DNA from: Bacillaceae bacterium
GTDB taxonomy: Bacteria; Bacillota; Bacilli; JACDOE01
NCBI GenBank assembly: GCA_017656255.1
Contig: JACDOE010000010.1
Location: 36,400-100,399, forward strand
Direction: 5' to 3'
Length of the DNA stretch: 64,000 bases
Program-made: the position numbers and the translations under genes
Part shown: piece by piece, positions 2,821-19,618 of the stretch
Layout of the letters: the number at the start of each line of letters is the position of its first letter
Numbering within the stretch: the stretch's first letter is position 1
Notes under the pieces: generated by a model
The model's input: only the letters and a program-made list of their open reading frames with translations
What the model was told of the DNA's origin: nothing
Databases searched by the model: none

Positions 2821-3498
2821 GTGTCGATGAACACGGATAACATGAGGCCTTACGTTTCTGAAGAACCTCTGGAAAAATTGAAGGAGATGATGCGGACCAG
2901 CCTGGAGCTTTTTCCGTTTCAGAGAGCCTCACTTTTTACATATTCTCCACTGACACAGGAGGCTCAGGGACTATTGGCGGCAACGCCCTGCGGCATTTTC
3001 TCCATGGAACATATCAAAGAAGATGTCCGCTCCATTCCCCTGGTTGAAATGGCGATTAAACAAAAAAAGGCGCAATTCGCCGTTATTTCCAGGTCCACTT
3101 TTCTTTTTCCTGAGAAATATATAGAGGCTTTTTCTCTTTCTTCCCTGCTGGTGGTCCCCCTGTGTGATCAGCATGCCGTGACCGGCTGTGTGCTGGCCGA
3201 TCGTTTTAGTCGGGACCAGGCCATCGATGATGTCCTGATCGGGAAGGTTGAACGGTACTTTAATCATGAGGTAAAAAAGATGATCGGTCGGGAGGAACCG
3301 GTCTGCAAATTGAGCCGGCGGGAGAGGGAAATCCTGTACTGGTTCTCCCGGGGACTGGGGACGAAGGAAGTGGCGGACCGCATCCGGATCAGTGAATATA
3401 CGGTGCGGGATTATACGAAGTCCTGTATGCGAAAACTGGGGGCGAAAAACCGGACGGAAGCGGTGGCGATTGCGCTACGGGAGAGGATGATTGATTAA
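2821..3498 (+). CDS. LuxR/GerE-family transcriptional regulator
   Basis: C-terminal LuxR-type HTH (REREILYW...GLGTKEVADRIRISEYTVRDY); N-terminal sensor domain of unknown type. Confidence 0.7.
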   Translation: MSMNTDNMRPYVSEEPLEKLKEMMRTSLELFPFQRASLFTYSPLTQEAQGLLAATPCGIFSMEHIKEDVRSIPLVEMAIKQKKAQFAVISRSTFLFPEKYIEAFSLSSLLVVPLCDQHAVTGCVLADRFSRDQAIDDVLIGKVERYFNHEVKKMIGREEPVCKLSRREREILYWFSRGLGTKEVADRIRISEYTVRDYTKSCMRKLGAKNRTEAVAIALRERMID

Positions 3499-3535
3499 AT
3501 GAAAAAGAGGACGTATGTCGTCCCCTTCTTTGATG
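3499..3535 (-). terminator. Putative intrinsic terminator downstream of the sigK 3' fragment
   Basis: Minus strand GGGGACGACAUACGUCCUC hairpin followed by a U-run, a few nt after the stop at 3545. Confidence 0.4.
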
Positions 3536-3544
3536 TTTACTCTG

Positions 3545-3920
3545 TTATTTTCGTTCCGGATGTTTGCGGTAAAATTCATGCAGCAGCTTCATCAAGGCCC
3601 TTTTTTCAATCCGGGAGACATAGGAACGTGAAATCCCCAGCTCTCTGGCAATTTCCCGCTGCGTCTTTTCTTCTCCCGATTCAAGCCCGAACCGGCCGAT
3701 GATCACCTCCTTTTCTCTTTTATCCAGCACGTGAATGTTTTTGTAGATCTTGCTTCGTTCGATTTTGAATTCCACTTTGTCGATGACTTCGTTGGCGTCT
3801 GTTCCGAGGATATCCATCAGGCTGATTTCGTTACCTTCTTTGTCGGTGCCGATTGGATCGTGGAGGGAAACGTCTTTGCGGGTTTTTTTGAGGGAGCGCA
3901 GGTGCATGAGGATTTCATTT
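3545..3920 (-). pseudogene. sigK: Orphan sigK 3' fragment (codons ~122-245 plus stop)
   Basis: Nucleotide-identical to 8150-8526 of the intact sigK except one synonymous difference (3551 vs 8156); identity ends abruptly at 3920 where AT-rich DNA begins; lacks the sigK 5' half. Confidence 0.85.
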
Positions 3921-4024
3921 CTAAAGTCAATATTTGAGCTATAAATTTGTTATATGAATGTTTATTCTCTTTCTTTAAAAAAATCTATAATAAAAACTAT
4001 TATAAGTTTCATATACTCACTAAC

Positions 4025-4816
4025 TTATTTCACTGCCTTCCATATTGTCCATCTATCTTTTTCGACTATATTTTTTTCTATATTAATTGACTTATCTATA
4101 TATTTTATTAGTTTATCCAATTCTTTATCATCTATTTCATATAAAATGCTTCTTCCTGTTCTATTCCTTAAATCTTTAAATAATTCCTCTTTCGTTTCAT
4201 GTACCTTTCTTATTTCCCATAACTTAACTTCTATAACATCTCTGAATCCAACATATTTAAGGGATTCAATAACAGTTTGTCCATTATGACGTCGATCAAT
4301 TTCTTTTTCAATTAGTCTGGGGAAAAGTTTAAAAAAATATCCTCTAATATGAGTTTCGTCCCCTTCTAATAAGCAATCTTCAGGGGTACGGTCTTGAACA
4401 ATATAATATCCATCTTTCTTTAATAATCTATATGCTTCTTTGAAACAAGCATATAAGTCATTAATATGATGTATTAATGCTCTTTCAAGTAATAAATCAA
4501 AACAGTCGCTTTCTAAATCAGTATCAAAAGCATTTCCATACTTAAAAGATATGTTTTTATATTCCTTACAGTTTTCTTCAGCTTCTTTAAGTATAGCTTT
4601 TGAAAAATCAACACCAGTAACGGAAGGTACACCCATATCCGAAAGTGCTTTACAATATATTCCACCACCACAACCGACATCTAAAGCTTTAGAAACATTT
4701 TCGATTGGTACAAGTTTTTTAATTGCTTCTATCCATGATTTGTCTGCCTTTCGTGTTGAATAAGTCTTGCTGTTTTTCTTATTATGAAAATCTATACCCA
4801 TGGTAAATCTCCTCAT
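4025..4816 (-). CDS. Class I SAM-dependent methyltransferase
   Basis: VDVGCGGG motif I; start probably at the internal Met (MGIDF...). Confidence 0.65.
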   Translation of the reverse strand: MRRFTMGIDFHNKKNSKTYSTRKADKSWIEAIKKLVPIENVSKALDVGCGGGIYCKALSDMGVPSVTGVDFSKAILKEAEENCKEYKNISFKYGNAFDTDLESDCFDLLLERALIHHINDLYACFKEAYRLLKKDGYYIVQDRTPEDCLLEGDETHIRGYFFKLFPRLIEKEIDRRHNGQTVIESLKYVGFRDVIEVKLWEIRKVHETKEELFKDLRNRTGRSILYEIDDKELDKLIKYIDKSINIEKNIVEKDRWTIWKAVK

Positions 4817-4926
4817 TCTATTGATTAAACTTTTATAGGGTAAATTTATATGAATGTTTATAATTTACCTCTTTAATTTTAAAACATACCACTAATGTTG
4901 CATAAATAGTTACAGAAAATCCAGAT

Positions 4927-5460
4927 TTATATGTTTGCGTGGAAATGGGCTAAAAAGCCAAATGCTAAAGTAAAATGTCCATTTAGAGTTGCAACGATAT
5001 AGATTTTCTTATGGACTACCTCGGATTTCCCATTGAATTTGGCGAACCATTTTTGAAAGGGATTTAATGTTTGTAACCAACGTTTGAAGAAGGGATTGCT
5101 TTGTTCTGTTTCCACGAGTAAACAATTTGTGATTAGGGCGGATTAAAGTCGGTTTTGAACCACCGTTTCCCATTTATACCATAAAAACCCTTTATTCAAA
5201 CATGTTGCTTAAACTATTTGAATAACTTAATTCCCCAACGAAACCAGTAGGTGTTACTAATCTGTTTAGCACTAATATCAAAGCGACTAGTAACGAATAT
5301 CTTTGCCTTGTGAGTCTACCGTTTCCACTAATTGAAATTCATTTTCGGTTCGCTTTACGTAGTTCCGATGACAAAGAGTCTAAGGAAATCGTTTTTATTT
5401 CAGATATAGCAAAGTGCTTGATTGTACAGTTCAACAACGGAATTTTTCTTGAGTCGTGAA
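4927..5460 (-). pseudogene. Possible degraded DDE transposase (IS remnant)
   Basis: Minus-strand frames give stop-interrupted peptides resembling transposase C-termini (ENEFQLVETVDSQGKDIRY, DISAKQISNTYWFRWGIKLFK); family not assigned. Confidence 0.25.
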
Positions 5461-5932
5461 GCAAAAGAAAATCCTTTAATAAGAAAAGCGATCAAAAAAC
5501 GTACATAGATTCTTTTTAGTCAATCAAAATCTCATGTTGCTAAAATTTGTTCACACGTTAAGAGTGATGATGACTTTCTCCGTAGATGGTACCGAAATCG
5601 ATAAATGCCAAACTTAAGTATAGTTTTACCCCTGCTTTTGTTTTTTGCGAAAGGATTCTCACTGGTAGTTTGTTAAATACATGTAGAATAATACTTGAAT
5701 TAATGATTTATAGATCAACTCATTTACCAAATAACTTGTCACATAGCGTTTTCCTTTCCTTTACTTTAGATTTGGATAGGGATCACCTATACTCTCCATT
5801 GTAAAGGATTTATAACACTTGCAGATCGAACATTCATTGTATTTTTAATACTCTGATTTAATTATTACAATACTAATACATAACAATCTGAATTATAAAT
5901 ATTATTCAAAGATTAACTTTGAAAGGTGCGTT

Positions 5933-7144
5933 TTATTTCATATCCAACTTACTGTTATACTTAATCGAGTCGGGAAGTGGAATATGCTCTACCTTAGGAA
6001 GAGATAAAAGACTTAGTAAACATAAACCCATAAATCCCAAGAATACATAGTGCGTATTCATAATCCCAGCCAAATACCCAGAAAGCAAGGCTGAAGAAAT
6101 CTTAGCAAATGATACCACAATTGACCGGAAACTAATCACGCGGCCCATTAACTCTTTAGGAGTGTTAATCTGAACCAGTGTCTGCATAGAAATCACATGA
6201 AATAGAATGAAGAATCCGAACCCGAACAAAGCAAAAACTGTAAACCAAACGTACCCATCAATTCCCATAAATAAGGAAAATACTACTAAACCAACTAAAG
6301 TTACCACACTAACTTTCTCTTTATATTTATATAATGCTTTTTCCACAACAAATCCACCCAATGATCCACCTAGTGTGAATGAAATGGTTATTATAGAAAA
6401 TAAAACGCTGGAACCTTTCATATCTCGTGCAACCATTGGAGCGAGTAGAGTATTTGTCATTTGATACCCTGCACTACTAATAGTAGCGAGGAAAAACAAG
6501 TATAACATTCCTCTTTTTTCATTTACAAACTTCCAACCAACTTTAATACCTTCAATAACGTCCATACTTTTACTTTGAATATTACGTCTATCTATTCGAC
6601 GAAGCAGTATAAAGAAAATTGATGATACCATAAAGGTTAATGCATTGATTGCAAAACAAATTTCTACTGATAAAATAGACATTACGATTCCTGCTATACC
6701 AGTACCAATCAATGCCATGACAAAATTAATTGAAGATGACTTAGAGATAACATAAACCATTTCTTCATCGCTGAATGATTCTCTAATTAACGTTTGAGAA
6801 GATGGCTTAAATACCAGATGACAAACTGCTAAAACAACTTGAAGAAGATAAAACATAACAATTGATATAGTATCTATAAAAATTAACAGAACAACAATAG
6901 ATACAGCTAACCCACGAATTAACTGAACAGCAACTGTTAACACTTTGGAGTCCTGATGGTCTGTAATTATTCCTACCCATGGTGCGAAAAATAAGGGAGG
7001 TAGGTAATTAATGGCGATTAATATTCCAAGGGACAGGGGACTTCCTGTAAGTTTTAAAACCAACCACATCAACGCTACCGATTGGAAACCATCTCCTAAA
7101 TTATTAATTGCTGAACCTAACAAATAAAAGAACTTATTTCGCAT
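5933..7144 (-). CDS. MFS transporter
   Basis: 403-aa ORF, about 12 predicted hydrophobic helices, N-terminal region typical of MFS efflux pumps. Confidence 0.7.
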   Translation of the reverse strand: MRNKFFYLLGSAINNLGDGFQSVALMWLVLKLTGSPLSLGILIAINYLPPLFFAPWVGIITDHQDSKVLTVAVQLIRGLAVSIVVLLIFIDTISIVMFYLLQVVLAVCHLVFKPSSQTLIRESFSDEEMVYVISKSSSINFVMALIGTGIAGIVMSILSVEICFAINALTFMVSSIFFILLRRIDRRNIQSKSMDVIEGIKVGWKFVNEKRGMLYLFFLATISSAGYQMTNTLLAPMVARDMKGSSVLFSIITISFTLGGSLGGFVVEKALYKYKEKVSVVTLVGLVVFSLFMGIDGYVWFTVFALFGFGFFILFHVISMQTLVQINTPKELMGRVISFRSIVVSFAKISSALLSGYLAGIMNTHYVFLGFMGLCLLSLLSLPKVEHIPLPDSIKYNSKLDMK

Positions 7145-7308
7145 AGTTGTGCCCTTCCATTTTTTATTTTAACTGGAAAATCATTTTATTTAGAAACATT
7201 AAATCGAGGAGGAATCGAAAAATAACATTCAAAAACACACTCTCTAAAATATATCCTTAAACTGTTGCTATTCGAATTCCTCCTCTGACATTCATGAAGT
7301 GAAGTGTT

Positions 7309-7989
7309 TTATTGTCTTCGTAATGAAAGGTTAGATAACTTAACGAAGCGTTTATATTTAAGAATAGTATCTAATACATCGCAAAGAATTAACATATTAG
7401 ACTCTTCCCCTGGAAAGTCACCCCAACTATCGTCATCGTTGCGAATGCTCATTAACCATTTGAAACCTTTTTCAATAGTGTTATGCCAAGAATAATCATC
7501 AAGGAGTTCACTCGCTAATATTAATGCTCGAATACTGTCACAAGTGTGGTCAACATTCATGTTATCGTAATGTCCTTCAGGATGTTGAGTCTTAACCAAG
7601 TATTGAACTGCTTTCTTAGAAGCTTTAACACCTTTCTTATCATATCCAAGAGTCTTTTGTAATAAGTGTGCTGTAACACAAACTGGTGTTTCATACTTTT
7701 CTTTATATTCCCATTCACCATCCTTACCCTGTCTTTCTATAATAAACTCCATAGCTTTGTTGTAAGGTTCTTCTACCATGTTTCTAATACGTTGTGGTAT
7801 ATCTGGAAGCATTCTAGCGAACATCAATGTACCGGCGCTTACACTAACAGCATCATAGAGTCCCCACTTATCATCCCACAAAGTCCCATCCTCTTTTTGT
7901 TGAGTGATTAACCAGGATAACCCATTATAAATTGCATTATCAAATCGCTCATTCCTCTGAGACAATGCATTATTAGCACGTAGAAGCAT
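7309..7989 (-). CDS. Prenyltransferase/squalene-cyclase-type (QW-like) repeat protein, possibly a fragment
   Basis: Repeated Q-x2-DG-x-W motifs (QQKEDGTLW, RQGKDGEW, NDDDSWGDFPG); only 226 aa and abutting the sigK repeat junction. Confidence 0.4.
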   Translation of the reverse strand: MLLRANNALSQRNERFDNAIYNGLSWLITQQKEDGTLWDDKWGLYDAVSVSAGTLMFARMLPDIPQRIRNMVEEPYNKAMEFIIERQGKDGEWEYKEKYETPVCVTAHLLQKTLGYDKKGVKASKKAVQYLVKTQHPEGHYDNMNVDHTCDSIRALILASELLDDYSWHNTIEKGFKWLMSIRNDDDSWGDFPGEESNMLILCDVLDTILKYKRFVKLSNLSLRRQ

Positions 7990-8149
7990 TTGTGTAGAAA
8001 ACGCAGTTTTTCTTACATGGCTTTTAATTTCCTTAGTGGTATTTCCCCAGCCACCATCCTCATGTGGGATAGAGCCCCATCTGAATTAACAGGGTCTGGG
8101 GTTTACACAGAAAAATTGACAGACCCTCCCCTTATTTTGACGTGTGCTT

Positions 8150-8887
8150 TTATTTGCGTTCCGGATGTTTGCGGTAAAATTCATGCAGCAGCTTCATCAA
8201 GGCCCTTTTTTCAATCCGGGAGACATAGGAACGTGAAATCCCCAGCTCTCTGGCAATTTCCCGCTGCGTCTTTTCTTCTCCCGATTCAAGCCCGAACCGG
8301 CCGATGATCACCTCCTTTTCTCTTTTATCCAGCACGTGAATGTTTTTGTAGATCTTGCTTCGTTCGATTTTGAATTCCACTTTGTCGATGACTTCGTTGG
8401 CGTCTGTTCCGAGGATATCCATCAGGCTGATTTCGTTACCTTCTTTGTCGGTGCCGATTGGATCGTGGAGGGAAACGTCTTTGCGGGTTTTTTTGAGGGA
8501 GCGCAGGTGCATGAGGATTTCATTTTCAATACATCTTGCTGCGTATGTGGCCAATTTGGTCCCTTTGTTTACCTTGTAACTTTCGATGGCCTTGATCAGC
8601 CCGATGGTGCCGATGGAGATCAAGTCTTCGCTGTCTTCGCCGGTGTTTTCAAATTTCTTGACGATATGCGCCACCAGGCGAAGGTTATGCTCGATCAGCA
8701 TATTCCGTGCCTCAACATCTCCCTGTTCCATCAAGCGTAAGTATTTCTCCTCGTCTTCTTCCGACAGTGGCTGGGGAAAGGCATTGTTCTTGACGTAGGA
8801 GACGAACAGAATCAGTTCTTTGTACAGAAGCGCCAGTAACCCGAGCAGTCCAGACACCCGATCCCACCTCCAGGAATAGTGCTTCAT
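8150..8887 (-). CDS. sigK: RNA polymerase sporulation sigma factor sigma-K (pro-sigma-K), intact
   Basis: 245-aa ORF with pro-sequence and conserved sigma-70 regions 2-4 ([84 protein letters not shown]), closely matching B. subtilis SigK from memory. Confidence 0.9.
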
Positions 8888-9061
8888 TTATGCCTATTCC
8901 CTTCTGGGCTTGTTTGTGTCTGTACTAAAAAAACTGTAATCAGTTTTATTTGCTTTTTTAAATTCTTTAAGTAAGTATCATATAACACCATAACAGACAG
9001 TAAAAGACAAGATCCCGGTTTGAATACCGAGATCATCACAGTAACTTAATACATCTCTAAT

Positions 9062-9562
9062 TTAATTAACCTTCTGATCATAAAACGCAATGGCCTCATC
9101 TATTAATTTTTCAAGATGTGGTTTAAGTTCAATTGCTTTTGATTTAGCTTTGTGTGTGTCATAGCCTAAATCAATTAAAAATGCATATGTACTAACCATT
9201 TCCAAAAACTGAGAACTTTCCTTGACCATAGAATTCAAAAGATCAGTATTAATTTTTAAAGAGTATCCTCCATCAGCTTCTAAAGTTTCTTTAAATGCTT
9301 TCCCCTTCTTAGTAATAGAGTACACATAAGCTTCATCGTTTTTTGATTCAGTTAGAAATCCTTGTTGTACTAAAGTATTTATCTCTTCTTGAAGTTCTGC
9401 AGAATATGGGCCATAAAAGTGGTATTCATACTTAAATGGTAAATCTAATCCGGCTGATTCAAGCAAATGCACCATCTTTTGTACCTTTTTTCGACCGTGT
9501 ACCTTTTTAATTTCATCAAACAGACTCAATAAACTGTAGGCTCCTTCGAACAATTCAATCAC
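9062..9562 (-). CDS. Panacea (DUF4065)-like protein, possible antitoxin-type partner of the HD protein
   Basis: GRKKVQKMVHLL...FYGPYS resembles the Panacea/SocA-like signature; start overlaps the HD gene stop (ATGA). Confidence 0.35.
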   Translation of the reverse strand: MIELFEGAYSLLSLFDEIKKVHGRKKVQKMVHLLESAGLDLPFKYEYHFYGPYSAELQEEINTLVQQGFLTESKNDEAYVYSITKKGKAFKETLEADGGYSLKINTDLLNSMVKESSQFLEMVSTYAFLIDLGYDTHKAKSKAIELKPHLEKLIDEAIAFYDQKVN

Positions 9563-10869
9563 CCTCCAAAAATTTCATTTTTATAATCTTCGGGCATAAA
9601 GTATCTATCTATAGAGATTTTTTTATTTCTAATTCCATTAATTATATCAGAGATCACTGATAATTCTGTACCATTTCCGTTATTATCAAATAAAATTATT
9701 TGCTCTGAAGCTTCACGTTCGCCTTCTTTTTCATCCGTTTTGGGCGTATGAAAAATATAGGGATCTTTGTATGAACTACTTTTAGCTTCGTCCATTAGAA
9801 AGTAGTACTTAATTGGAATGCCTTTTTTGTTTGAATATTCGAATACCTCCTGCCAAAACTCCATAGGACTTTTGTCTGGAATGGAAACTGACTTAAAAAA
9901 CTTTCTTCTTAATAGTCGAGTACAAAGATCGCTCAATATCGAATCTTGGTGTCTACTCCATATCGAAATAAAATACCAAATCGTATTATCTGTTAAATTA
10001 ATATAATTATGTAGTGTTTCTTTAAGGTTGCCTTTTTCTGATAAAATCCGAATCAAATCTTCAGGAAATTCAATCTCCTGTTTTTCTTGAAAAATCTCAT
10101 AAGCTCTATTAAATATTTTATCTACTAGTAGTTCAGCGCTCCGAGTTGTTTTGTGAAAATACACATTCATATACATATAGTACCTTGCCATAACAAAATC
10201 TTCGGCTATACTAATACCTTTTTCAAGATCTAACCCTACCTCAATTTGACCATTATATTCACCGATTCTCAATACATTTATCATCCATTCAAGATCGAAT
10301 GAACCGTAGCCTGCACCAGTCATTTTAGAGTCTCTTAATAAATAATCAATTCTATCTGTATCTAACTGACTTGATAACAATTTCACAAGAGCTTTGGATC
10401 TATGAGTTCGTTGAATAACATCAGCAACTTCATCTGGGTCCACATTGTACTTTTTGAGAACGCTATTGATTTCTGTATCCCCACGTATTATTTCTATTGT
10501 CCACTTTTCATGTCTAACGCCAGTTGTTTTTTCTAAAGCATGGGAAAAAGGGCCATGCCCAATATCATGTAGGAGTGCTGCAGTTAATGCTAACATTCTA
10601 TTATCAGCTAGCTCTTGAGAATATTGTTTGTATTGTTCATCCTTTAAGCTACATATCTTATTAATAAATCTTTTAGTTAAATGTGTCACACCAATAGAAT
10701 GAGCAAACCGAGTATGTTCGGCTCCTGGATATGTAAATGACGATAATCCAAGTTGTTTTATATGGCGTAGTCTTTGAAATTCTTGGGTATCTATTAATTC
10801 CAAAAGCAAAGCATCTGATTCTTTATCAAAATGAATAATATTATGTACGGGATCACGAATAGTTTTCAC
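9559..10869 (-). CDS. HD-domain dNTP triphosphohydrolase-like protein (dGTPase/SAMHD1 family)
   Basis: Motifs RFAHSIGV, LLHDIGHGPFSH, DTDRIDYLLRD characteristic of HD dNTPases; 436 aa. Confidence 0.7.
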   Translation of the reverse strand: MKTIRDPVHNIIHFDKESDALLLELIDTQEFQRLRHIKQLGLSSFTYPGAEHTRFAHSIGVTHLTKRFINKICSLKDEQYKQYSQELADNRMLALTAALLHDIGHGPFSHALEKTTGVRHEKWTIEIIRGDTEINSVLKKYNVDPDEVADVIQRTHRSKALVKLLSSQLDTDRIDYLLRDSKMTGAGYGSFDLEWMINVLRIGEYNGQIEVGLDLEKGISIAEDFVMARYYMYMNVYFHKTTRSAELLVDKIFNRAYEIFQEKQEIEFPEDLIRILSEKGNLKETLHNYINLTDNTIWYFISIWSRHQDSILSDLCTRLLRRKFFKSVSIPDKSPMEFWQEVFEYSNKKGIPIKYYFLMDEAKSSSYKDPYIFHTPKTDEKEGEREASEQIILFDNNGNGTELSVISDIINGIRNKKISIDRYFMPEDYKNEIFGG

Positions 10870-10917
10870 ATTATCACCCCATTATAAAACTCTTTAATTA
10901 TTATCTAACTCGACAAA

Positions 10918-11556
10918 CTAGAATGCATTGTGTTTTCCCATTTGTCTCAGTACTTCTAATCTATCTAAACAACTTGTACATAATAAGCAATGTCGATCCC
11001 CTAAAGCATTACAAGAAAAGGTTTTTTCTATTGGTACTGACATGTTAATTGCCTCATCAATTACAATCTGTCTGTCTAAACCCACAAATGGAGTGATCAA
11101 TTCAAATTCATGAAGTGATTCTGAAAGAGTAGTAGATATGCTCTCTATAAATGACTTACTTGTATCCTTATAAGATCTTGACCCAGTCACACCTATTGCT
11201 ATTTTTCGTATATCGTTTTTATACGCATATGCTCCAGCCAAAGATATTAAAATCATATTTCTGTTCGGAAAAAACTCGGTATTAAACCATTCTTCTGCTG
11301 AATATCCTGATTGAGGACTATCCCCCACAAGTGATCCAGAGCCAAGGTGCTTCATATTAGAAATGTCTAAAAATAAGACTTTATCCGCATACTCATTTCC
11401 TATTATTGATTTAATTGCTCTAATTTCGCCAGACACTGTTACTTGCCCATAGTTAATATGAATAGGGAATATATCGTATTTTCTTTTTCGCAACCAATAA
11501 TAAAGAACAACAGAATCAATGCCCCCTGATAATAATAATACGACTTTTTTTCTCAT
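10918..11556 (-). CDS. QueC-like PP-loop ATPase (7-cyano-7-deazaguanine synthase family)
   Basis: PP-loop SGGIDS near the N-terminus and a C-terminal Cys cluster (C-x8-C-x2-C-x2-C) as in QueC. Confidence 0.75.
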   Translation of the reverse strand: MRKKVVLLLSGGIDSVVLYYWLRKRKYDIFPIHINYGQVTVSGEIRAIKSIIGNEYADKVLFLDISNMKHLGSGSLVGDSPQSGYSAEEWFNTEFFPNRNMILISLAGAYAYKNDIRKIAIGVTGSRSYKDTSKSFIESISTTLSESLHEFELITPFVGLDRQIVIDEAINMSVPIEKTFSCNALGDRHCLLCTSCLDRLEVLRQMGKHNAF

Positions 11557-12818
11557 AATATATACAACTTCTCTATTAATTCTTCAATAGATTCAACTAT
11601 AACATTACAACCATAAACTAGCATATTATTTAATTCAAACTGTGAGGTTTTTAAAGCAATTATAGGGATACCTCTTTCATAAGCAAACCCAACTTCAAAA
11701 CATGTACCCGGATCATTATGATCTAACAATGCTACCACAACATCAGATTGTCTTATCAAGTCAAGATCTTTATCAAAAATATTTTTGCGTTCATCCATTG
11801 GTGTGTCTTTCTTTATAATTCCATTTTCTCGTAGAGGTGATAAAACTTTAAATCCACAATTTTCTATTCTATTCGTTATTAATTTAACCCAATCCTCTTC
11901 CTGTTTACTAAAAAATGGACCTGCCAAGTAAACGCTTTTGTCTGAATTACCAGATACAACAATTTCTCTTCTGTCCATATCTTCTTCTACCGCTACTCTA
12001 TTTATTATATTTTCAATTGTAAAATTCTCAATGAAGTTAGCAGCAACACAACTTGCTAACCTCGTACTATACTCAATATCCCTCGTCCTGAGAAATGTAG
12101 CAGCTAATGCACCACCAAAAACATCACCAGAGCCTAAAGTGCATTTAACATTACTTTTATACGCCGGTATATGTATAGTCTTTCCTTCGTTTACTAGAAT
12201 ACAACCTTTATATCCTCTTTTTACGATTATGTACTTAGGCCCCATATGAATTAACTTTTCAATAGCATTCTCTAAAGTATTTGCTTGAGTTAATAATAAA
12301 ACCTCTTCCTCATTTACTAAAAGTACAGATACATATTCTAAAATTTTTCTAGCATCATGAATTGATTTGCTATTTGGTTTTGGGTCAAGAAAAACAGGAA
12401 TATTTTTTTCACATGCTTGCTTACATAAATCTTCCGGAAGCGAGTGATCCACTGGAAATACTAAGATACCCTCACATTCATCACTTAGCTGTGGATTATA
12501 TTCAATACCGATTTTAACATCTATCAAAGGAGTACTTTTTTTAACTTCATAAGCTTTATAACCTTTTACTAAATATTTTGGCAGACAATAATTTTCCATA
12601 TATTTAGCACTCGAAAAACTTACACCCATTAAGTTCCATATTTTTATACTATATGAATCGATTTCGGGCCCGTATACTGTCATAAACTCAACATTGATGC
12701 CTTGTTTTGCTGCAGATATTGATGCATATAAACCGGCTCCCCCAAATCTATCGATAATCTTTGTATCATAATCTAATAATAAGTCAATACCTATCTCTCC
12801 GTATACAGCAATATTCAT
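11553..12818 (-). CDS. PfkB-family kinase fused to a nucleoside 2-deoxyribosyltransferase-like domain
   Basis: N-terminal ribokinase-like motifs (GGAGLY; TLGSGDVFGGALAA); C-terminal NDT/Rcl-like motifs (VYLAGPFF; DPGTCFEVGFA with putative catalytic Glu). Start set at the internal Met with a GAGGTG RBS; the track ORF runs to 12866. Confidence 0.6.
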   Translation of the reverse strand: MNIAVYGEIGIDLLLDYDTKIIDRFGGAGLYASISAAKQGINVEFMTVYGPEIDSYSIKIWNLMGVSFSSAKYMENYCLPKYLVKGYKAYEVKKSTPLIDVKIGIEYNPQLSDECEGILVFPVDHSLPEDLCKQACEKNIPVFLDPKPNSKSIHDARKILEYVSVLLVNEEEVLLLTQANTLENAIEKLIHMGPKYIIVKRGYKGCILVNEGKTIHIPAYKSNVKCTLGSGDVFGGALAATFLRTRDIEYSTRLASCVAANFIENFTIENIINRVAVEEDMDRREIVVSGNSDKSVYLAGPFFSKQEEDWVKLITNRIENCGFKVLSPLRENGIIKKDTPMDERKNIFDKDLDLIRQSDVVVALLDHNDPGTCFEVGFAYERGIPIIALKTSQFELNNMLVYGCNVIVESIEELIEKLYIL

Positions 12819-12823
12819 CGGTA

Positions 12824-13534
12824 TCACCTCACGAATTGAAAGTATCCGTTTCTCCCTAATATCCATAATAAATAGTCCATCTTACCTAAAGGCACTCCAA
12901 TCTTCAAGCAAATAATTCGTAATGCTTCTTCATATTGTAAGTAAACCTTTTCTGTTATGTTTTTAGGAATATTATATCCTAAGTAACCAAGAAATCTTAG
13001 TATATGGATATCCAGTACTGCACAATCATTATTAAATCCTGTATTCCTTAATAGCCAACTAGCTGATTTCATGCCAATACCTGGACATTCACATAGCCAT
13101 GTTCTAGCATCAAATGAATTAAGTTCATTAAGTTTATCAAATAATCTCCAGTGACAGTTCTCCCAAAGCCAATATCCAGCCTTGGATATAACCTTAGGCT
13201 TCGTTTCCACAAATCTATATTTTCTGAACTGGCCGTTACAAGTAATGGGATAAAACTGCTTTTTTGATAACTCTCTCTTTATTACATTTTCAATTATATA
13301 TAAGTTAGATATAGAGGAATAATATTTTGCTTCGATTAACCCTTTATTCTTTAATACATGTAAACCTGATTTGTTTAACTCATAACTGATTCCAAATCCT
13401 CCAAGAACTACGAAAAAAAATTCATCTATAACTTGTTCATTAGATTTTGAAACAAACGAAAACTCTCTTTCAATTGCAATACCATAAGTTTCCCAAAGTT
13501 CTTTTAACACATTGAATGCTCTAGTATTTTCCAT
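12824..13534 (-). CDS. Ogg-type HhH-GPD DNA glycosylase-like protein
   Basis: Helix-hairpin-helix with Lys (CPGIGMKSASWLL) followed by an Asp motif (VLDIHILR), matching the 8-oxoguanine glycosylase/AP lyase pattern. Confidence 0.6.
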   Translation of the reverse strand: MENTRAFNVLKELWETYGIAIEREFSFVSKSNEQVIDEFFFVVLGGFGISYELNKSGLHVLKNKGLIEAKYYSSISNLYIIENVIKRELSKKQFYPITCNGQFRKYRFVETKPKVISKAGYWLWENCHWRLFDKLNELNSFDARTWLCECPGIGMKSASWLLRNTGFNNDCAVLDIHILRFLGYLGYNIPKNITEKVYLQYEEALRIICLKIGVPLGKMDYLLWILGRNGYFQFVR

Positions 13535-13540
13535 ATCACT

Positions 13541-13891
13541 TTACGCCTCTACCTCTACTGTAACCTTCGGGTCATGTTGATTCCCTTCTTTTTTTATTAC
13601 AACCCCCTTGTATTCCCACCCTTCTTCAATACATTTTAAGAGCCAACTGTATTTTGGAGGAACGACCCCTATACTAAAATTATCTTTTTCTTTTTTTACT
13701 TCCATGACCGGCAATGTATCATCATTTCTTAAGATAATAGACACTTCATCATTCACAGAAACATTTCTCCACACTGCTTTTTGATTCTCATTAACAATTA
13801 ATAAAATTGTAACTTTTTCACCGCATCTATTTACTGTTTTTCCAGTTCCTCCTCCAAAACCACCAAATGATGAAAAGCCACCACTTCCCAT
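13541..13891 (-). CDS. Small protein with glycine-rich N-terminus (unknown function)
   Basis: 116 aa; N-terminal GSGGFSSFGGFGGG; strong RBS (TAAGGAGGA); first or second gene of the block B operon. Confidence 0.4.
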   Translation of the reverse strand: MGSGGFSSFGGFGGGTGKTVNRCGEKVTILLIVNENQKAVWRNVSVNDEVSIILRNDDTLPVMEVKKEKDNFSIGVVPPKYSWLLKCIEEGWEYKGVVIKKEGNQHDPKVTVEVEA

Positions 13892-14024
13892 ATAAATCCT
13901 CCTTACTAGTTATTTTTTTTTTTGCAATCTTTATAATACTCCAAAACTATTTATATTTAAATTAAATGAAATCTCATTTTGATCACTTCTTTTGTAAATT
14001 GTCTAATGTGCTTAGAATATGTTA

Positions 14025-14450
14025 TTATTTCTCTAGACCAAATTCTCTTTTTAATTTATTAAAGTCATATTCTTTTATTTCGATTGGGATACTAAGGTTC
14101 TTAAGTTTTGACATCAAATCGCTTTTATTAACAACAGGTTTGTCCTCGTAAACAATTGCGAATATCAATTTAAAATTATTTATTGAAGCACTGTCTAAAT
14201 TTTTAGCTGTCTGATATAACGATTCAATAACATTACGAGTTAACTTACCTCGTTTATTATATTTTATCTCAAATCCATAAGTTGAATTATCAGTTTTACT
14301 AATACCATCAATTTCAATTAACTTATCAGAAGATTTAAATGCCATGTGTCTCTGAATAGGAATTTTAAATTCTTGTTCAAGTTTCCTAAACACCAAATCT
14401 TCAGCTAAAAAGTATTGCATTTTGGGATCAACAGTCACTTTGGAAGGCAT
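14025..14450 (-). CDS. Hypothetical protein, possible PD-(D/E)xK-like fold
   Basis: 141 aa; spaced D...E-x-K residues (IEIDG, FEIKY); weak RBS; in-frame open sequence upstream without an ATG suggests possible truncation. Confidence 0.3.
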   Translation of the reverse strand: MPSKVTVDPKMQYFLAEDLVFRKLEQEFKIPIQRHMAFKSSDKLIEIDGISKTDNSTYGFEIKYNKRGKLTRNVIESLYQTAKNLDSASINNFKLIFAIVYEDKPVVNKSDLMSKLKNLSIPIEIKEYDFNKLKREFGLEK

Positions 14451-15283
14451 GTCTAACGTACCCGCTTTATCCTCTTCAATATTATTATCACTAGAAGATT
14501 CTTCAAGCTCTGCTTCTGCTTTCTTTCTTTGTGAATCACTAGTTAATTTTAAGAAATTCCCTTCATCCTTAAAATCACTTGGCGCATATAATTTGGTATG
14601 ATAAAAATCACAAGTCTATAAAATGTAAATAAAACAAGTAAAGGGAAAATTACTATGAAACACACAAGGAACCATTTTTGAGAAACATTTAATTCCGAAC
14701 TAAATTGAAGTACTAATGCTGCTATTCCATAAATTAGTGATATAAATAATGCAATGATACCTAAGGGGTTCTTTGTAAAACCTGATGCACTTCTCGTGAA
14801 TTCTATTATTATCGCTCACCTTCCTTGTAAAAATTTTAAAATGATGCCAACGTTACTCATTCTTAATACCAATCCAAATCATATCCGTGGACAAAAATGG
14901 CTGGAAAATATAAAACATGTCTGAGTATCAAAAAATTAATCTTTTAATATAACATTCTTCTCTTTTTTCTCATTAACTCCTCCTAGCTTTTGTGCACACC
15001 AATATATTAAAAAACAATCTTCAAAACTATACTTACTCCTTTTAGATCAAAGATCAAAAAATCCCTAACAAAAAAATTAGTGTTTATTCTCAATTGTATT
15101 TCGGTAAAAAAACAGATAATCCCTTTTAGGACAAATAAAAAATAATTAGTAAGGATATCACTCTATACTATATACTTATCTGAATTAATAGGTTTAATTG
15201 GTTTTATAATTATCTTCTTTTAGCTATTTGAAACCCCCCCTGACCCAGCACCACACCAGCATTCTTCCGACATCGCTTCGTGT

Positions 15284-15561
15284 TCACAACCTCTTGACGA
15301 TATGCGCCACCAGGCGAAGGTTATGTTCGATCAGCATATTTCGCGCCTCAACATCTCCCTGTTCCATCAAGCGTAAGTATTTCTCCTCGTCTTCTTCCGA
15401 CAGTGGCTGGGGAAAGGCATTGTTCTTGACGTAGGAGACGAACAGAATCAGTTCTTTGTACAGAAGCGCCAGTAACCCGAGCAGTCCAGACACCCGATCC
15501 CACCTCCAGGAATAGTGCTTCATTTATGCCTATTCCCTTTTGGGCTTGTTTGTGTCTGTAC
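15284..15561 (-). pseudogene. sigK: Orphan sigK 5' fragment (36-bp leader plus codons 1-77, then VKRL-stop)
   Basis: 15292-15561 matches 8654-8925 of the intact sigK with 4 mismatches, all synonymous or in the leader; homology ends at codon 77/78. Confidence 0.85.
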
Positions 15562-15742
15562 CGGAGATTTGTTTTTGCTCTTTTGTTAAAAACTGTTTAA
15601 GCATTTTTAACACTAGCGTTCTCAAATAAATTTAATGTTTCTGTCCTTCACTTCTTTTTTCTACAAGTAAACAAACATCCCGCAATACCTTAATAGTAAT
15701 GCGGGATATTATGAGAACCTTTTAGACATACCCTTCTTTACC

Positions 15743-18346
15743 TTATAACCTCGGGTCAATTTCTTTCTCTTTACTTACTTCAAATAGCATGTTAGCAACC
15801 ACCTGTTTATATTTATGATCTGACTCATTTATTTTATCTAAATGAAAGGCCAACATCTCTTTCCCAAGTTTGAATTCATTGATAGAGGTTTTTAGTTTCT
15901 TTGAAATATTTTTTTGCTTTAAAAGCTTGGCATATTTGTGTGGAAAGCGATAATCATATCCATAAACAATGGTTAAATAATCTGGATTGCGAACTTTCAT
16001 ATAAGGGGCAGTATCATCTGCCAATTTTTCAGGTTTAATCACGACACCTTCCATTTTTCTTTCTGTTGTCAAAGTCTTAAAAAAGGTTAAAGCTTTTTCA
16101 TAATAATCCTGTTCGTTTAAATCGATCAACATAAATTCATCATCAGATACAAACTTAAAAATTTCCGATGTTGATTCTGCAGGGATGATCTCTTCTCCAT
16201 TTTCCTTGACCATTTTTAAAATATTAAATGGTTTATAGTTAATCTCATCATCCTTTGCATAGAGCTCGATTTGTTCATGATATTTTTGATGGGCTTCCAC
16301 ATGTTTTTCTATTGGTTCATATGACTTTAACATAGTTTGCAACGCCTTATAAGTCTGGTAAGTGGCACCGCCAAACTTTTTAATCAAATCTTTCTTAGAC
16401 ATTGTTTGCTGATCGACTTCATAGTCACTTGATTTATATTGCTCAACAAGTTTTTGAAAGTGGGCATCAAAGCCTTGCTCCTTTAAAAAATCCAACTCTG
16501 TTTGTAAAGCTCTGTCTATAGTCCTAAATTGCTTTTCAATCAATTCCTCTCCCAAAATAGACCAGGGCAGTAATTCACCATCAAACACGATTGTTTTTAT
16601 TTTATTCTCTTTCATGTAATCCGAAAATTTATTTAACAGATTATCATATACCGGAGACAAATCCACTTTCTTAATTTTAAATCCATTTCGACTCACTGCA
16701 TAACATTGATCTAGTTCCCTTGCTAAGTAAATGTTACATCTTGACCCCATGTACTTCGGTTGCAAAACCACTTTATGGACGCCTTTTCTCTTAAAATACA
16801 ACAACCCCTGTTTTAAAGATTCCAATTCATTGCTATCCAAATCTTTGTCAGCCGGCGACATGGTACCAGAAATATAATTAATCTTATTTTTCAAGACATA
16901 ATTAAGGCGCTTTTGGTCCTGTTCATGTAAATCCTCGATGTTAACATGTTTATCTCTTTGTTTAAATAAAGTAGGTAAAGGTTCGTTCCAGTATTTACTA
17001 GTGCTTGTAATTCGCTGCTGTTTAAAAAACGGTCTCCAGGAGTCAATCACAACAGAAGAAAGAACATTTCCATTGGCAGCTCCCGTATCAATGTTAATCT
17101 TATTTTTAATTTGGACTATTTCTTTTACAGCAACATGTCCAAAAATATGATACGGATGATTTCCAACACTCTCTGACTCCAGAAAGTGCAATTGCTCCTC
17201 GTAGGGTTTTTCTCGATCAAGAACAAAGCTTCTTTGCTTTTTCAGAGACGTTTTATCTAACTTCCCTATATATTTGTTTTGACACGGAGCATGTGTCACA
17301 TAAAAGGAAGGCTTTTGTAATCCAATATACCTGTAGAATTCTTTCGAAGATTCAACGAGTCGGAAAAATTTGTGTTTTAAATCCTCATCCTTTTCAAAGA
17401 TTTCTATAGAGTCAAAGTAGTTGTCTAGTAAACTTGAATCTACTGAATTCTTATCAATTTCACCTTTCAAGTATTTGTAAACAAAATTCTCATGATTTCC
17501 TTTTACAAGCACAAAATGATCCATATTTTGTTCAATAAATTCTACCGTCTCTTTGGTAGCATTTCCTTTGTCAATCCAGTCTCCGTTAAGAATAATTTTA
17601 TATTCATCCGTTTTTTCAGTGGATAAAATACGATTATTTTCAATATTAAACCCATAGCTGATAAGCAGCTTTTTTAAATCAGCCACTTTTTCATGAACAT
17701 CTCCAACAATTATATATTTGTGTTCCTGCGGCAAAATATGACTGAGATAATGATCTAAATCCTCTATCATAATTTTATAATTTGCATTCGGTTCATTGGT
17801 ATCAGGGTTATAGAAATCCCGCTCCCTAATTTTGTGTATTCGACGAAATTTTGACTTTGAAATTTGTTTCAGAACCTCTCTTTTGAGACGAGTGACATGA
17901 TTTGAAATTAATCGTCTTGAACCACCTGAAGCATAGAAATCTTCTCTATTTTTAAAATCAAAAAGTATAGCTTCCAGGTTATATTGCTTTTCTTTAGCAA
18001 TTTCCATGATTTGCTCACGGAATTCTTCTGAAAGGCCAATTGTATCAACAATGACGAACTCGGCGTTAATTGGAAATGACGTAACGGCTTTTAGTTTCTC
18101 AAATAAAATATGAAAGGCTTGTTCGCTGCTTTCCATCATAATTCTGTCATGTTTGTCATATTCATGTCCCAAAATATCCTGCCTGATTTCATCAGAGGAA
18201 ATATATTGAACATTGGTTTTAAAGCCCCGATCCTTATCCTGAATAGAAAGTTGAGGCAACAATATTTCTTTAGCAAATGTTGATTTACCGGAATTAGTAG
18301 CACCAATTAACATAAATATGGTATGCATATTTGTTTTTAATTCCAT
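15743..18346 (-). CDS. pnkp: Polynucleotide kinase-phosphatase (Pnkp): kinase, metallophosphatase and ligase-like domains
   Basis: 867 aa; P-loop GATNSGKST; calcineurin-like GDVHEK and GNHE motifs; C-terminal domain with a KYMGSR lysine motif; size and order match bacterial Pnkp. Confidence 0.8.
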   Translation of the reverse strand: MELKTNMHTIFMLIGATNSGKSTFAKEILLPQLSIQDKDRGFKTNVQYISSDEIRQDILGHEYDKHDRIMMESSEQAFHILFEKLKAVTSFPINAEFVIVDTIGLSEEFREQIMEIAKEKQYNLEAILFDFKNREDFYASGGSRRLISNHVTRLKREVLKQISKSKFRRIHKIRERDFYNPDTNEPNANYKIMIEDLDHYLSHILPQEHKYIIVGDVHEKVADLKKLLISYGFNIENNRILSTEKTDEYKIILNGDWIDKGNATKETVEFIEQNMDHFVLVKGNHENFVYKYLKGEIDKNSVDSSLLDNYFDSIEIFEKDEDLKHKFFRLVESSKEFYRYIGLQKPSFYVTHAPCQNKYIGKLDKTSLKKQRSFVLDREKPYEEQLHFLESESVGNHPYHIFGHVAVKEIVQIKNKINIDTGAANGNVLSSVVIDSWRPFFKQQRITSTSKYWNEPLPTLFKQRDKHVNIEDLHEQDQKRLNYVLKNKINYISGTMSPADKDLDSNELESLKQGLLYFKRKGVHKVVLQPKYMGSRCNIYLARELDQCYAVSRNGFKIKKVDLSPVYDNLLNKFSDYMKENKIKTIVFDGELLPWSILGEELIEKQFRTIDRALQTELDFLKEQGFDAHFQKLVEQYKSSDYEVDQQTMSKKDLIKKFGGATYQTYKALQTMLKSYEPIEKHVEAHQKYHEQIELYAKDDEINYKPFNILKMVKENGEEIIPAESTSEIFKFVSDDEFMLIDLNEQDYYEKALTFFKTLTTERKMEGVVIKPEKLADDTAPYMKVRNPDYLTIVYGYDYRFPHKYAKLLKQKNISKKLKTSINEFKLGKEMLAFHLDKINESDHKYKQVVANMLFEVSKEKEIDPRL

Positions 18347-19618
18347 TTACTTTTCACCTCTTGCTTTAACCAAAACTCCCTGAGTGGTATAAACCCCGTC
18401 TACACAATCGCCAATACTTAAATGATGAATCTCAAAATCTCGTTCATCAAAAATCTCACTTATCCATTGTTTAAATTCATTTGTCCCCATTTCCCATTTA
18501 TGATCTTCATGCCGATATTCATCCAGGGAATAATACTTATTAAAATCATGATTTGGAGTCGTTATAATAATGGATTCAAAATGAATGTCATCAAGAATTG
18601 TTAAAATTAGTTTTTTAGCCTCATCCTTCTCCATGTGTTCAATGACTTCTGTAAGGATGACATCAACTAATTCCCCATTGTAATCTTCAATAAAATCCTC
18701 AATGGATCCATAAGTTAATATATTTTCAATACCCCTTTTTTTAATTCTTGCATCCAGCGAACGAATGATATCTTCATCAATGTCAATGGCATAATAGTAT
18801 TTGTCACCTATACTTTCGGAGAAAAGAAAGGCATAATAACCTTCCCCACATCCAACATCAACAATTGGTTTGTTGAAGGGTAATAACTTTTTTATCGCTT
18901 CTCTTCTTTGGTGAGCTGTATGTCCGTAAGAAAAGTTTATGTCATACCTTTGTGTTTCTTCCAGGCTTTCTTTAAATTTTGAAAATAATTTCCTGCTGGT
19001 AAGTATGTTTCGTGCAAACAGATACCTTATAAAAAACGGAGCATCCAGGACTTTAATTTGATTAACATACTTTTCAATCAAACTATCTGTAACATCAAGG
19101 TATTCGTTACCTATTAAAGATAAAAATAAAAACAATAGATTAGCTGTATTCAATAAATCATAAATACTTTTGTTCGTTTTGATTTTAATTGAATAGCTCT
19201 TGTGAGATTGATGAATCATTTCGATAGAGAAATCCTCAAAATGTTTGCTAAAAAAATCTATATATCTTGGTAGTGTGATATGAACCATATTCACAAATAA
19301 TTCATTTTCATATCCTTCAAGATCATTATCATACCGGTTTTTGATTGTGGAATTAAAGAATTCTGTCATTGCGTTTAATGGAAAAAGAGGTGTATTATAT
19401 CTTGAAACATTTAGATATTCAAAGCTTTCTTCTTTATGTTGCTTGTAAGATATCTCGTTGTCAGCGTCCTTAAAATATATATTGTAGGTTTGATCATCAG
19501 AATACCAGCCAAACGCAATTCCCTGTCTGACTGTACGCAACATCATGCCTGAAGCTGGATTTTTGCGTATTAAAAAAGAAAAGTGCGGATTCGTTGATTT
19601 TAACTGAACAATAGCCAT
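18347..19618 (-). CDS. hen1: Hen1-like RNA 3'-terminal ribose 2'-O-methyltransferase
   Basis: 423 aa; C-terminal class I MTase motif (VDVGCGEGYY); stop abuts the pnkp start. Confidence 0.7.
   Translation of the reverse strand: MAIVQLKSTNPHFSFLIRKNPASGMMLRTVRQGIAFGWYSDDQTYNIYFKDADNEISYKQHKEESFEYLNVSRYNTPLFPLNAMTEFFNSTIKNRYDNDLEGYENELFVNMVHITLPRYIDFFSKHFEDFSIEMIHQSHKSYSIKIKTNKSIYDLLNTANLLFLFLSLIGNEYLDVTDSLIEKYVNQIKVLDAPFFIRYLFARNILTSRKLFSKFKESLEETQRYDINFSYGHTAHQRREAIKKLLPFNKPIVDVGCGEGYYAFLFSESIGDKYYYAIDIDEDIIRSLDARIKKRGIENILTYGSIEDFIEDYNGELVDVILTEVIEHMEKDEAKKLILTILDDIHFESIIITTPNHDFNKYYSLDEYRHEDHKWEMGTNEFKQWISEIFDERDFEIHHLSIGDCVDGVYTTQGVLVKARGEK

Follow-up and report, generated by a model that had tools for sequence, protein, structure and literature searches.

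An intact sigK gene between displaced copies of its own ends: a probable healed target of two large serine recombinase-type elements

The sigK gene in the analyzed window, a 64,000-nucleotide stretch of bacterial DNA, is complete and lies between two AT-rich islands, each bracketed by direct repeats of sigK itself. The locus is likely a repaired ("healed") sigK that still bears the scars of two different sigK-intervening elements of the large serine recombinase (LSR) type, one of which would have inserted at the skin site between codons 121 and 122 and another between codons 76 and 77. Literature searches for an intact sigK with orphan fragments found no description of such an arrangement. The features of the locus are as follows.

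3502-3530, minus: native sigK intrinsic terminator, now 3' of the 3' orphan (fold of 3490-3550)
3545-3920, minus: orphan 3' sigK fragment, codons 122-245 plus stop, beside GC-normal host DNA
3920-3930, minus: class II (skin-type) element-side half-site TTGACTTTAGA, directly beside the AATGA core and the 3' orphan; attR-type scar
3931-8126, minus: island A, ~31% GC
4025-4816: SAM methyltransferase (island A)
5933-7144: MFS transporter (island A)
7309-7989: squalene-cyclase/prenyltransferase-like repeat protein (island A)
8127-8149, minus: tail past the intact sigK stop, possibly diverged homology to the native terminator region
8150-8887, minus: intact sigK, 245 aa as annotated
8656-8925, minus: gene-proximal 5' repeat copy, from promoter-like GTACAGACAC... 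through codon 77, joined to island B
8926-15269, minus: island B, ~32% GC
9011-9034, minus: terminator closing island B, immediately 5' of the promoter copy that belongs to the intact gene (-14.2 kcal/mol, z -3.95)
9062-9562: DarG-C-like/DUF4364 (island B)
9559-10869: HD/dGTPase-like (island B)
10918-11556: QueC-like (island B)
11553-12866: PfkB kinase fused to nucleoside 2-deoxyribosyltransferase (island B)
12824-13534: Ogg-like glycosylase (island B)
15270-15288, plus: class I element-side half-site, ACATCGCTTCGTGTTCACA on the plus strand, which is TGTGAACACGAAGCGATGT in gene orientation; attL-type scar
15292-15561, minus: orphan 5' sigK fragment, promoter-like segment plus codons 1-77
15562 to ~21650, minus: block C, 30-34% GC, ~6 kb upstream of the 5' orphan
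15743-18346: Pnkp (block C)
18347-19618: Hen1 (block C)
19774-21105: Spo0M/arrestin-like membrane protein (block C)

The copies of the 3' and 5' ends of sigK beside the intact gene, reported in a preliminary description of this DNA, were recovered by a repeat search, BLAST, and pairwise alignments. The 3' repeat aligns positions 8127-8525 with 3521-3920 over 401 columns at 97.8% identity. Within codons 122-245 the orphan differs from the intact copy (8150-8525) by the single synonymous change noted earlier (CGC/CGA), and 124/124 residues of its product are identical to the intact SigK in tblastn. The 5' repeat pairs 8656-8925 with 15292-15561 over 270 bp; the start of the intact copy, previously placed at 8654, is thus corrected to 8656. 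The four silent or leader mismatches ascribed to this copy are confirmed by the alignments, one being upstream of the ATG and three synonymous, with no amino-acid change. The reading frame of the 5' orphan ends two codons past the junction. All coding differences between the repeat copies of both pairs (4/4) are synonymous, a pattern expected of alleles that were both functional as they diverged.

Each island has sigK direct repeats on either side, with the intact gene at one junction and an orphan at the other. What makes the gene whole is duplication: codons 122-245 occur again beside island A, on its gene side, and the promoter with codons 1-77 occurs again on the gene side of island B. Only codons 78-121 (8526-8655) are single-copy, and they are found solely in the intact gene. 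A simple segmental duplication in place was rejected, because the junctions carry foreign att half-sites.

The 3' orphan at 3545-3920 is the displaced native end of sigK. It retains the native terminator, as had been suggested from its appearance: in the fold, a U-run comes after a stem of 12 bp (-15.3 kcal/mol, z -5.8). For the intact gene, the fold test gave no intrinsic terminator (z -0.3). The proposal that diverged homology continues past the stop stands in part: ~24 bp of it is seen, but the match is weakly significant, with 2-3% of shuffles scoring as well. Rfam searches over window positions 1-24000 yielded sub-threshold chance matches only.

The SigK protein of the window is 100% identical to an NCBI MAG SigK and shares 83-85% identity with SigK of Ammoniphilus and Aneurinibacillus. 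Alignments with the relatives begin at residue ~11 of the annotated protein, and near this residue a GTG codon (8857-8855) is preceded by a GGAGGTG ribosome-binding site. Judging from the sequence, translation probably begins not at the annotated ATG but at the GTG at 8857; in that case the "leader" of the repeat probably holds the core promoter. The contexts of the nearest SigK homologues show no synteny with the window: the PBP-YceG cluster adjoins sigK or lies within ~3 kb of it in these contexts and is ~48 kb off in the window. An exact look-up of the SigK protein among assemblies retrieved no record, and a scan of the genome collection with SigK gave a best match of 80% and no close relative that could define the island-free native locus.

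GC content is 29-35% between the repeats versus about 46-55% in the flanks. In addition to the genes listed above, island B contains two small ORFs of no recognised kind. Upstream of the 5' orphan lies block C, which has no bracketing sigK repeat and falls outside the healing model; its first ~180 bp may be native sigK upstream DNA. Block C, the codon 76/77 junction as a recurrent recombinase site, and the MAG origin of the contig were absent from the preliminary description.

The scars at the island junctions belong to two classes. The class II target is codon 121/122 with the core AATGA, and the class I target is codon 76/77 with the core within TCGTCAAGA. The sole exact match to TTGACTTTAGA in the window is at the 3' orphan junction. 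In prophage contigs (L081-L085) and Aneurinibacillus migulanus (L142) the same motif separates sigK codon 122/123 from a SpoIVCA-like LSR gene, lying ~25 bp past the stop of an LSR of 500-540 aa and directly before the codon; it also adjoins orphans in three further loci (L057, L070, L075). The 3' breakpoint, previously said to be near the skin site, is the skin site, and a skin-type half-site marks it. The class I consensus was built from loci of other species and not from the window. It has one match in the window, with 0 mismatches versus 0.02 matches expected, and this match is inverted and located at the 5' orphan junction, 3 bp beyond the end of the orphan. TGTGAACACGAAGCGATGT is the inverted form of a motif conserved at codon 76/77 in other species. 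The motif is oriented as in the window in L012 and L018, and its mirror image abuts 3' orphans in L008, L046, L054, and L056 and the LSR-side junction in L142. The earlier view of islands that targeted sigK and have a replacement segment on one side and an orphan segment on the other is upheld, and each orphan is still joined to an LSR-type half-site.

The preliminary description recognised no recombinase gene in the window. The same result was obtained with Pfam, applied to long reading frames across the window and to every one of those in the islands, and with tblastn using nine LSRs of three clades. Partner half-sites of either class are absent from the window, leaving one half-site per island. 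The gene being whole, the recombinase missing, and the scars lacking partner sites, islands A and B would be fossilised, and site-specific excision should no longer be possible. They could then be removed only by homologous (RecA-type) recombination between the 270- or 376-bp direct repeats; as stated previously, recombination between either pair would delete one island and leave sigK intact.

Comparison with sigK loci of relatives, the check suggested earlier, revealed the same architecture but no shared cargo. An intact sigK with extra sigK fragments was found in 17/80 related species-level loci, so the healing process appears recurrent; nine of the 17 have breakpoints at site I and three at site II. 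No cargo or non-coding DNA common to the window islands and any related locus was found, and cargo is likewise unrelated among these loci. Fragment and intact copies are 78-98% identical in relatives versus 98.5-99.7% in the window. The more diverged and hence unambiguous repeats occur in isolate genomes on large scaffolds, e.g., in L046, L056, and L075. In relatives, nearest-neighbour identity did not tell the native copy (orphan or gene-proximal) from the other, because the 5' part was often closer to the sister species than either 3' copy.

In A. migulanus (L142, GCA_050483405.1) three elements truly divide sigK into four or more pieces, with one LSR clade per site, in the order LSR, attR(I), codons 74-127, attL(II), element, LSR, attR(II), codons 123-155, third LSR. 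This arrangement is likely the ancestral, unhealed state predicted for the window locus. The LSRs form three clades matching three sigK sites. Members of clades I and II share 56-78% or 66-76% identity, those of clade III share 46%, and identity drops to 25-31% from one clade to another. In Brevibacillus fortis (L057) only C-terminal LSR remnants remain beside the class II scar, which shows recombinase decay in progress.

A natural explanation is that an LSR would have integrated each element into sigK, and that homologous recombination with an intact sigK copy would then have rebuilt the gene. The rebuilding may have gone by way of illegitimate recombination anchored in homology, or a circle with captured flanking sigK may have inserted by the Campbell route; the repeat geometry fits both alike. 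The recombinase genes, now useless, would have been lost, and the displaced native sigK ends would have been left behind as orphans, each still carrying a single terminal half-site of the element that had been there. Viral and metagenome scans did not yield a related circle carrying a sigK fragment. LSR remnants beside the scar were found in 0/8 class I 3'-orphan loci. This argues against simple decay in place, in which some remnants are expected, and favours mobilisation in trans or a model in which cassettes already of the form "repeat-cargo-scar-repeat" spread by homologous recombination. Further points count against healing. The near-identical repeats of the window require a very close donor or gene conversion, block C does not fit the model, the contig is from a MAG, and a free attP with both class I arms was not found in viral or metagenome contigs, where the scans for it and for a class I attR gave only unrelated palindromes or one chance match inside an ORF.

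Another scenario is that the islands are active or recently active gene-restoring integrative elements, with a sigK segment (promoter plus codons 1-77, or codons 122-245) built into the att site and the LSR supplied from elsewhere in the genome, as for satellites or cis-mobilisable elements; integration would then never inactivate sigK. We regard this as unlikely, with some points in its favour. In Paenibacillus auburnensis, P. albidus, and two other genomes of the genus, a class I LSR is directly followed by a complete sigK that has a promoter of its own, and a dN/dS of 0.05-0.08 indicates strong purifying selection on these LSRs; the order LSR, 61-aa ORF, promoter, sigK is common to L018 and L141. 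In L018 such an LSR is joined with a minimal 983-bp 3'-restoring insert, and the close spacing of class I scars and cargo, within about 100 bp in all class I loci and with no LSR remnant, also fits. However, the window has no LSR, and with one half-site per island there is no site pair for a recombinase to act upon. For LSRs such as phiC31 and Bxb1, hybrid sites composed of P-type and B-type halves are not known to recombine with attB unless special factors are present. The distal ends of the restoring segments also vary by locus, lying ~38 or 79 bp ahead of the annotated start at the upstream end and between 0 and 400 bp beyond the stop, and look like ad hoc capture rather than a designed site. 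It is similarly doubtful that the sigK-restoring cassettes are an evolved strategy and not debris, with class I and II LSRs moving them in trans via hybrid (half element, half gene) sites, a logic that to our knowledge has not been described for large serine recombinases. If so, elements or recombinase-less satellites would occupy sigK sites without blocking sporulation, and, given the orphan promoter and the terminator-less sigK, transcription of the co-oriented genes in islands B and A would become mother-cell-specific.

An assembly artefact, in which sigK is plain and the repeat-bounded blocks are separate circles or DNA of other strains or organisms, is distinctly improbable. In its favour, the 103,489-bp contig derives from a MAG ("Bacillaceae bacterium"), exact matches in the repeats extend over about 220 and 370 bp, the islands differ from host DNA by about 18 points of GC, and the protein collection holds no second sigK copy of the same species. 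On the other hand, every junction needs a real molecule, and the assembled order is the only linear arrangement that uses all junctions. The alternative circles (4.6 and 6.6 kb) lack replication genes, the repeat copies differ at specific positions, half-sites lie exactly at the junctions, and the architecture recurs in the isolate genomes mentioned above. A developmentally regulated split gene of the B. subtilis kind, with fragments joined by excision in sporulation, is effectively ruled out, as the preliminary description had concluded, provided that the intact copy is no assembly artefact. The breakpoints are genuine recombinase targets in sigK, one of them the skin site, but the orphans cover codons 1-77 and 122-245 only, joining them without codons 78-121 cannot yield a gene, a complete sigK is already present, and the window has neither a recombinase nor paired sites.

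If the locus is indeed a healed sigK, about a fifth of the sampled related loci have sigK permanently intact, with cargo and one att scar left between duplicated pieces. LSRs have three or more distinct target sites in the gene, with a different recombinase clade for each, so that repeated hits are possible and a conserved sporulation gene becomes a hotspot for accessory and defence-type genes. The duplicated sigK pieces act as portable homology arms, and the islands are therefore exchangeable or losable by ordinary recombination. Since unsplit, split, and healed states all exist, culturable strains of Paenibacillus, Brevibacillus, and Aneurinibacillus offer a way to test in which order the events took place.

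A gene that is kept broken and rejoined during development is what skin-type elements classically exemplify. The window resembles the B. subtilis skin and other sigK-intervening prophage-like elements in its target, in the position of the class II scar (...ENE|IL..., 5-bp AATGA-type core), in the element-end motif, which is that of SpoIVCA-type prophages, and in the lack of relationship between the cargo of different elements. Unlike skin, which has the SpoIVCA LSR and an RDF, the window has an intact sigK and no recombinase or RDF, and excision is neither needed nor possible; one of the two junction sites is kept per element, and a second target site at codon 76/77 is involved. The skin core is 5 nt (PMC13141910). 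In skin elements spoIVCA is found at the element edge, usually just upstream of spoIIIC, and cargo is unrelated between elements (bioRxiv 10.1101/2022.02.25.481979).

Gene-restoring integration, attP sites with a target-gene fragment, and tandem IGE arrays have been described (PMC7192596). The window shares with tRNA-targeting islands and with e14/phage 21 in E. coli icd an intact target, a displaced orphan, and bracketing direct repeats. Such elements encode an integrase, mostly of the tyrosine type, by the site, and the repeat is part of a functional att, whereas neither island of the window has an integrase, and here the scars are of LSR type, the restoring segments are long (270-376 bp), and their distal ends are variable. 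The recombinase-less islands, target-gene repeats, and shared target are also reminiscent of CIMEs and tandem accretion at Streptococcus thermophilus fda (ICESt1/ICESt3). CIMEs retain both att sites, and an incoming ICE can mobilise them in cis; the lack of mobility genes fits, but the window islands keep one half-site each, of different recombinase classes. There are also parallels with A. migulanus, which shares both target sites and their half-site motifs. There, the middle piece (about codons 75-122) lies between a junction of class I and one of class II, whereas in the window the LSRs are gone and the middle piece is continuous with the full 5' and 3' parts of sigK.

The intact sigK of the window lies between two orphan copies of its own ends, and DNA with different gene content fills each interval.

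Features of the sigK region
3545-3920: orphan copy of the sigK 3′ end (3′ orphan)
Between the 3′ orphan and intact sigK: island A, with genes for a SAM methyltransferase, an MFS transporter, and a squalene-cyclase-like repeat protein
8150-8887, minus strand: intact sigK
9062-13534, within island B (between intact sigK and the 5′ orphan): genes for DarG-C-like, HD/dGTPase-like, and QueC-like proteins, a PfkB kinase/nucleoside 2-deoxyribosyltransferase fusion, and an Ogg-like glycosylase; island B holds two further small unknown ORFs
15292-15561: orphan copy of the sigK 5′ end (5′ orphan)
15562-21650: block C, with genes for Pnkp, Hen1, and a Spo0M/arrestin-like membrane protein

Repeat search and pairwise alignment within the window verified both copies, as the preliminary description had claimed, far above chance. 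The 3′ repeat (R3) matches 3521-3920 to 8127-8525 with 97.8% identity over 401 columns, and within codons 122-245 a single synonymous base separates the 3′ orphan from the intact gene. The 5′ repeat (R5) aligns 15292-15561 to 8656-8925, 270 bp with four mismatches, one before the ATG and three synonymous. Codons 78-121 are present in one copy only. The intact reading frame encodes an ordinary SigK protein containing sigma-70 regions 2 and 4, 100% identical to one NCBI MAG protein and 83-85% identical to SigK of Ammoniphilus and Aneurinibacillus. Fold prediction detects a strong intrinsic terminator at the 3′ orphan, in line with the native-looking terminator reported earlier, and none at the intact sigK; another predicted terminator (9011-9034) separates island B from the promoter copy of the intact gene. 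The diverged homology described past the sigK stop is present as similarity, but its significance is marginal.

Because the alignment with relatives begins only at residue ~11, at a GTG preceded by GGAGGTG, the annotated ATG is probably wrong and the true start probably lies at 8857. The "leader" within the 5′ repeat would therefore probably carry the predicted core promoter; it contains GTACAGACAC…CATAAATGA, similar to the Paenibacillus sigK promoter GTACATGCAC…CATAGAATA. With the GTG at 8857 and this ribosome-binding site, the pro-sequence has the same length as in relatives (window 8855-8887). The annotated ATG falls within the CATAAATGA element, which is similar to a sigma-E/K -10 box.

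The DNA between the repeats has a GC content of 29-35%, compared with about 46-55% in the flanks. The earlier picture of repeat pairs bracketing AT-rich blocks thus stands for islands A and B, but it overlooked block C, in which AT-rich DNA runs on for ~6 kb past the 5′ orphan to about 21650 without a bracketing sigK repeat. The island B cargo at 9062-13534 suggests a module for nucleotide modification or defence; the QueC-like protein is a PADLOC QueC match, and no complete PADLOC system was matched by this cargo. Pnkp and Hen1 of block C are an RNA-repair pair, and the spacer 21106-21664 beside the PALP gene (21665-22894) contains apparent pseudogene fragments of a PLP-dependent enzyme. Elsewhere in the window, two methyl-accepting chemotaxis protein genes (37297-39033 and 39480-41219) are tandem duplicates spaced 2183 bp apart (37294-41185) and share a 300-nt stretch at 100% identity. 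A palindromic element of 34-38 nt, TGTTACACCCATAC…GTATGTTTGTAACA, occurs at 499-536, 26865-26902, and 48385-48422, and might act as a terminator present in several copies or as an operator-like site.

The island-side sequence touching an orphan is conserved across species within each breakpoint class. At class I sites (codon 76/77), the motif …TTACATCGGTTCGTGTTCACA|TCGTCAAGAAATTCGA adjoins 3′ orphans in other species, and the 5′ orphan of the window ends in the inverted form of it, …ATCGTCAAGA|GGT|TGTGAACACGAAGCGATGT. The class I consensus derived from other species only has a single match in the window, without mismatches, at 15270-15288, exactly at the 5′-orphan junction (expected 0.02). The same attL-type form is found at two other sigK loci (L012 and L018). 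At class II sites (codon 121/122), the motif TTGACTTTAGA adjoins the window 3′ orphan (3920-3930) and the orphans of Brevibacillus fortis (L057) and of loci L070 and L075. In five prophage contigs, the gene for a large serine recombinase (LSR) of 500-540 aa stops about 25 bp before the class II motif, which is followed by sigK codon 122/123. From these contigs and the B. subtilis sequence, the class II site is presumably the skin site by its residues (…CIENE|ILMHLR…). The class I core lies inside TCGTCAAGA and the class II core is AATGA. Inverted element ends that share a short core, as here, are the hallmark of attachment sites used by serine integrases. [quoted passage not shown]

This architecture recurs. 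In a sample of one genome per species, comprising 80 sigK loci from Paenibacillus, Brevibacillus, Thermoactinomycetaceae, and others, 17 loci have additional sigK fragments no more than 10 kb from an intact copy. Breakpoints cluster at codon ~69-79 (site I; eight 3′ orphans and one 5′ orphan, the latter in L012), at codon ~120-123 (site II; three loci), and at codon ~195-207 (five loci). The last group consists of short 3′ fragments located about 100 bp to 5 kb downstream of intact sigK in L009, L017, L066, and L071, and upstream and inverted in L005; it may represent a candidate fourth recurrent breakpoint. The two sigK copies of a locus are 78-98% identical. The islands have lower GC content than the left flank, except in L005, L012, and L046, and their cargo is unrelated between loci (McrBC/SIR2/HD, GmrSD/HEPN/OLD-like, ABC transporters, regulators). 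In the eight of these 17 loci that were scanned with Pfam, the islands gave no recombinase match. In the sister pairs L054/L053 and L073/L055, the 5′ parts of sigK are 92-95% identical, whereas the identity of either 3′ copy to the sister sequence is only 83-87%, which suggests that sigK downstream of codon ~76 is often replaced horizontally. In Paenibacillus solanacearum (L005, 10820-16140), a CRISPR-like array with the 32-nt repeat ATTTCAATCCACGCATCCGTGAAGGATGCGAC and a period of about 66 lies directly downstream of sigK.

Since the window comes from a MAG contig, its structure might reflect an assembly graph that joined a plain sigK with two circles, A+R3 and B+R5. This is unlikely, because such circles would have no replication genes and because the same arrangement, with diverged repeats, is found in genomes of isolates. 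More probably, an LSR first drove integration into sigK, homologous recombination with an intact copy then rebuilt the gene, and the recombinase was lost afterwards. As in the preliminary description, no recombinase was found in the window: both Pfam, on the long reading frames tested, and tblastn, with nine LSRs as queries, were empty. Partner half-sites for the two scars are also absent from the window, and site-specific excision of A or B is thus not possible with its content alone.

The restoring sigK could have arrived (a) as incoming intact sigK DNA by homology-anchored illegitimate recombination, (b) by Campbell insertion of a circle that had picked up the neighbouring sigK sequence, as happens in specialised transduction, or (c) as a ready-made repeat-cargo-scar-repeat cassette, brought in through a double crossover within the sigK arms. 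The geometry fits all three routes. The restoring segments have no fixed distal end: the limit lies about 38 or 79 bp before the annotated start, or 0 to 400 bp beyond the stop, and this variability favours ad hoc capture. Searches with tblastn found no LSR remnants in any of the eight class I 3′-orphan loci, which argues for route (c) or mobilisation in trans. All four coding differences between the window copies are synonymous, with a probability under neutrality roughly estimated at 0.3-0.5%; this suggests two functional alleles from close lineages, not post-duplication decay. The account covers islands A and B, and block C falls outside it. Restoring elements that are active in Paenibacillus are an alternative kept open by the class I LSRs found immediately upstream of full-length sigK in several species, where they are under strong purifying selection (dN/dS 0.05-0.08).

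Homologues of the sigK-adjacent LSR of L018 form a large family, and the LSRs fall into three clades matching three sigK sites. Class I elements share a module of three tandem tyrosine recombinases (recombinase-in-trio), a ~290-aa unknown protein, small ORFs, and the LSR (L018, 2452-9634; L141, 1-6996; L142, 4999-11641; L144, 4556-11668), directly upstream of full-length sigK in L018, L141, and L144. The third target site, near codon 155, has its own LSR clade (prophage contig L085, 1534-3278; L057, 11660-12209; L142, 15788-17476) and leaves a short sigK piece, codons 123-155, between two convergent LSR genes.

Skin-type elements, LSR att sites, gene-restoring integration, and tandem arrays are known components (PMC7192596, PMC6957869, PMC5025042). 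The literature searched contains no description of an intact sigK between orphan fragments with single att scars of two LSR classes, and gives no frequency of healed sigK loci in Paenibacillaceae and relatives. In B. fortis, only C-terminal LSR remnants remain next to the class II scar, which shows element decay in progress. In Aneurinibacillus migulanus (L142), sigK is split three times: three tyrosine recombinases and a class I LSR are followed by attR(I), codons 74-127, and attL(II) (GAAAATGAG|ACTCTAATGTCAA), and then by an element with a class II LSR, attR(II), codons 123-155, and a third LSR. Given this split gene and the site-matched LSR clades, the window looks like an A. migulanus-like arrangement after repair. 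Unlike in A. migulanus, the middle piece in the window is joined to full 5′ and 3′ parts, and the outer native pieces are left as orphans with one half-site each.
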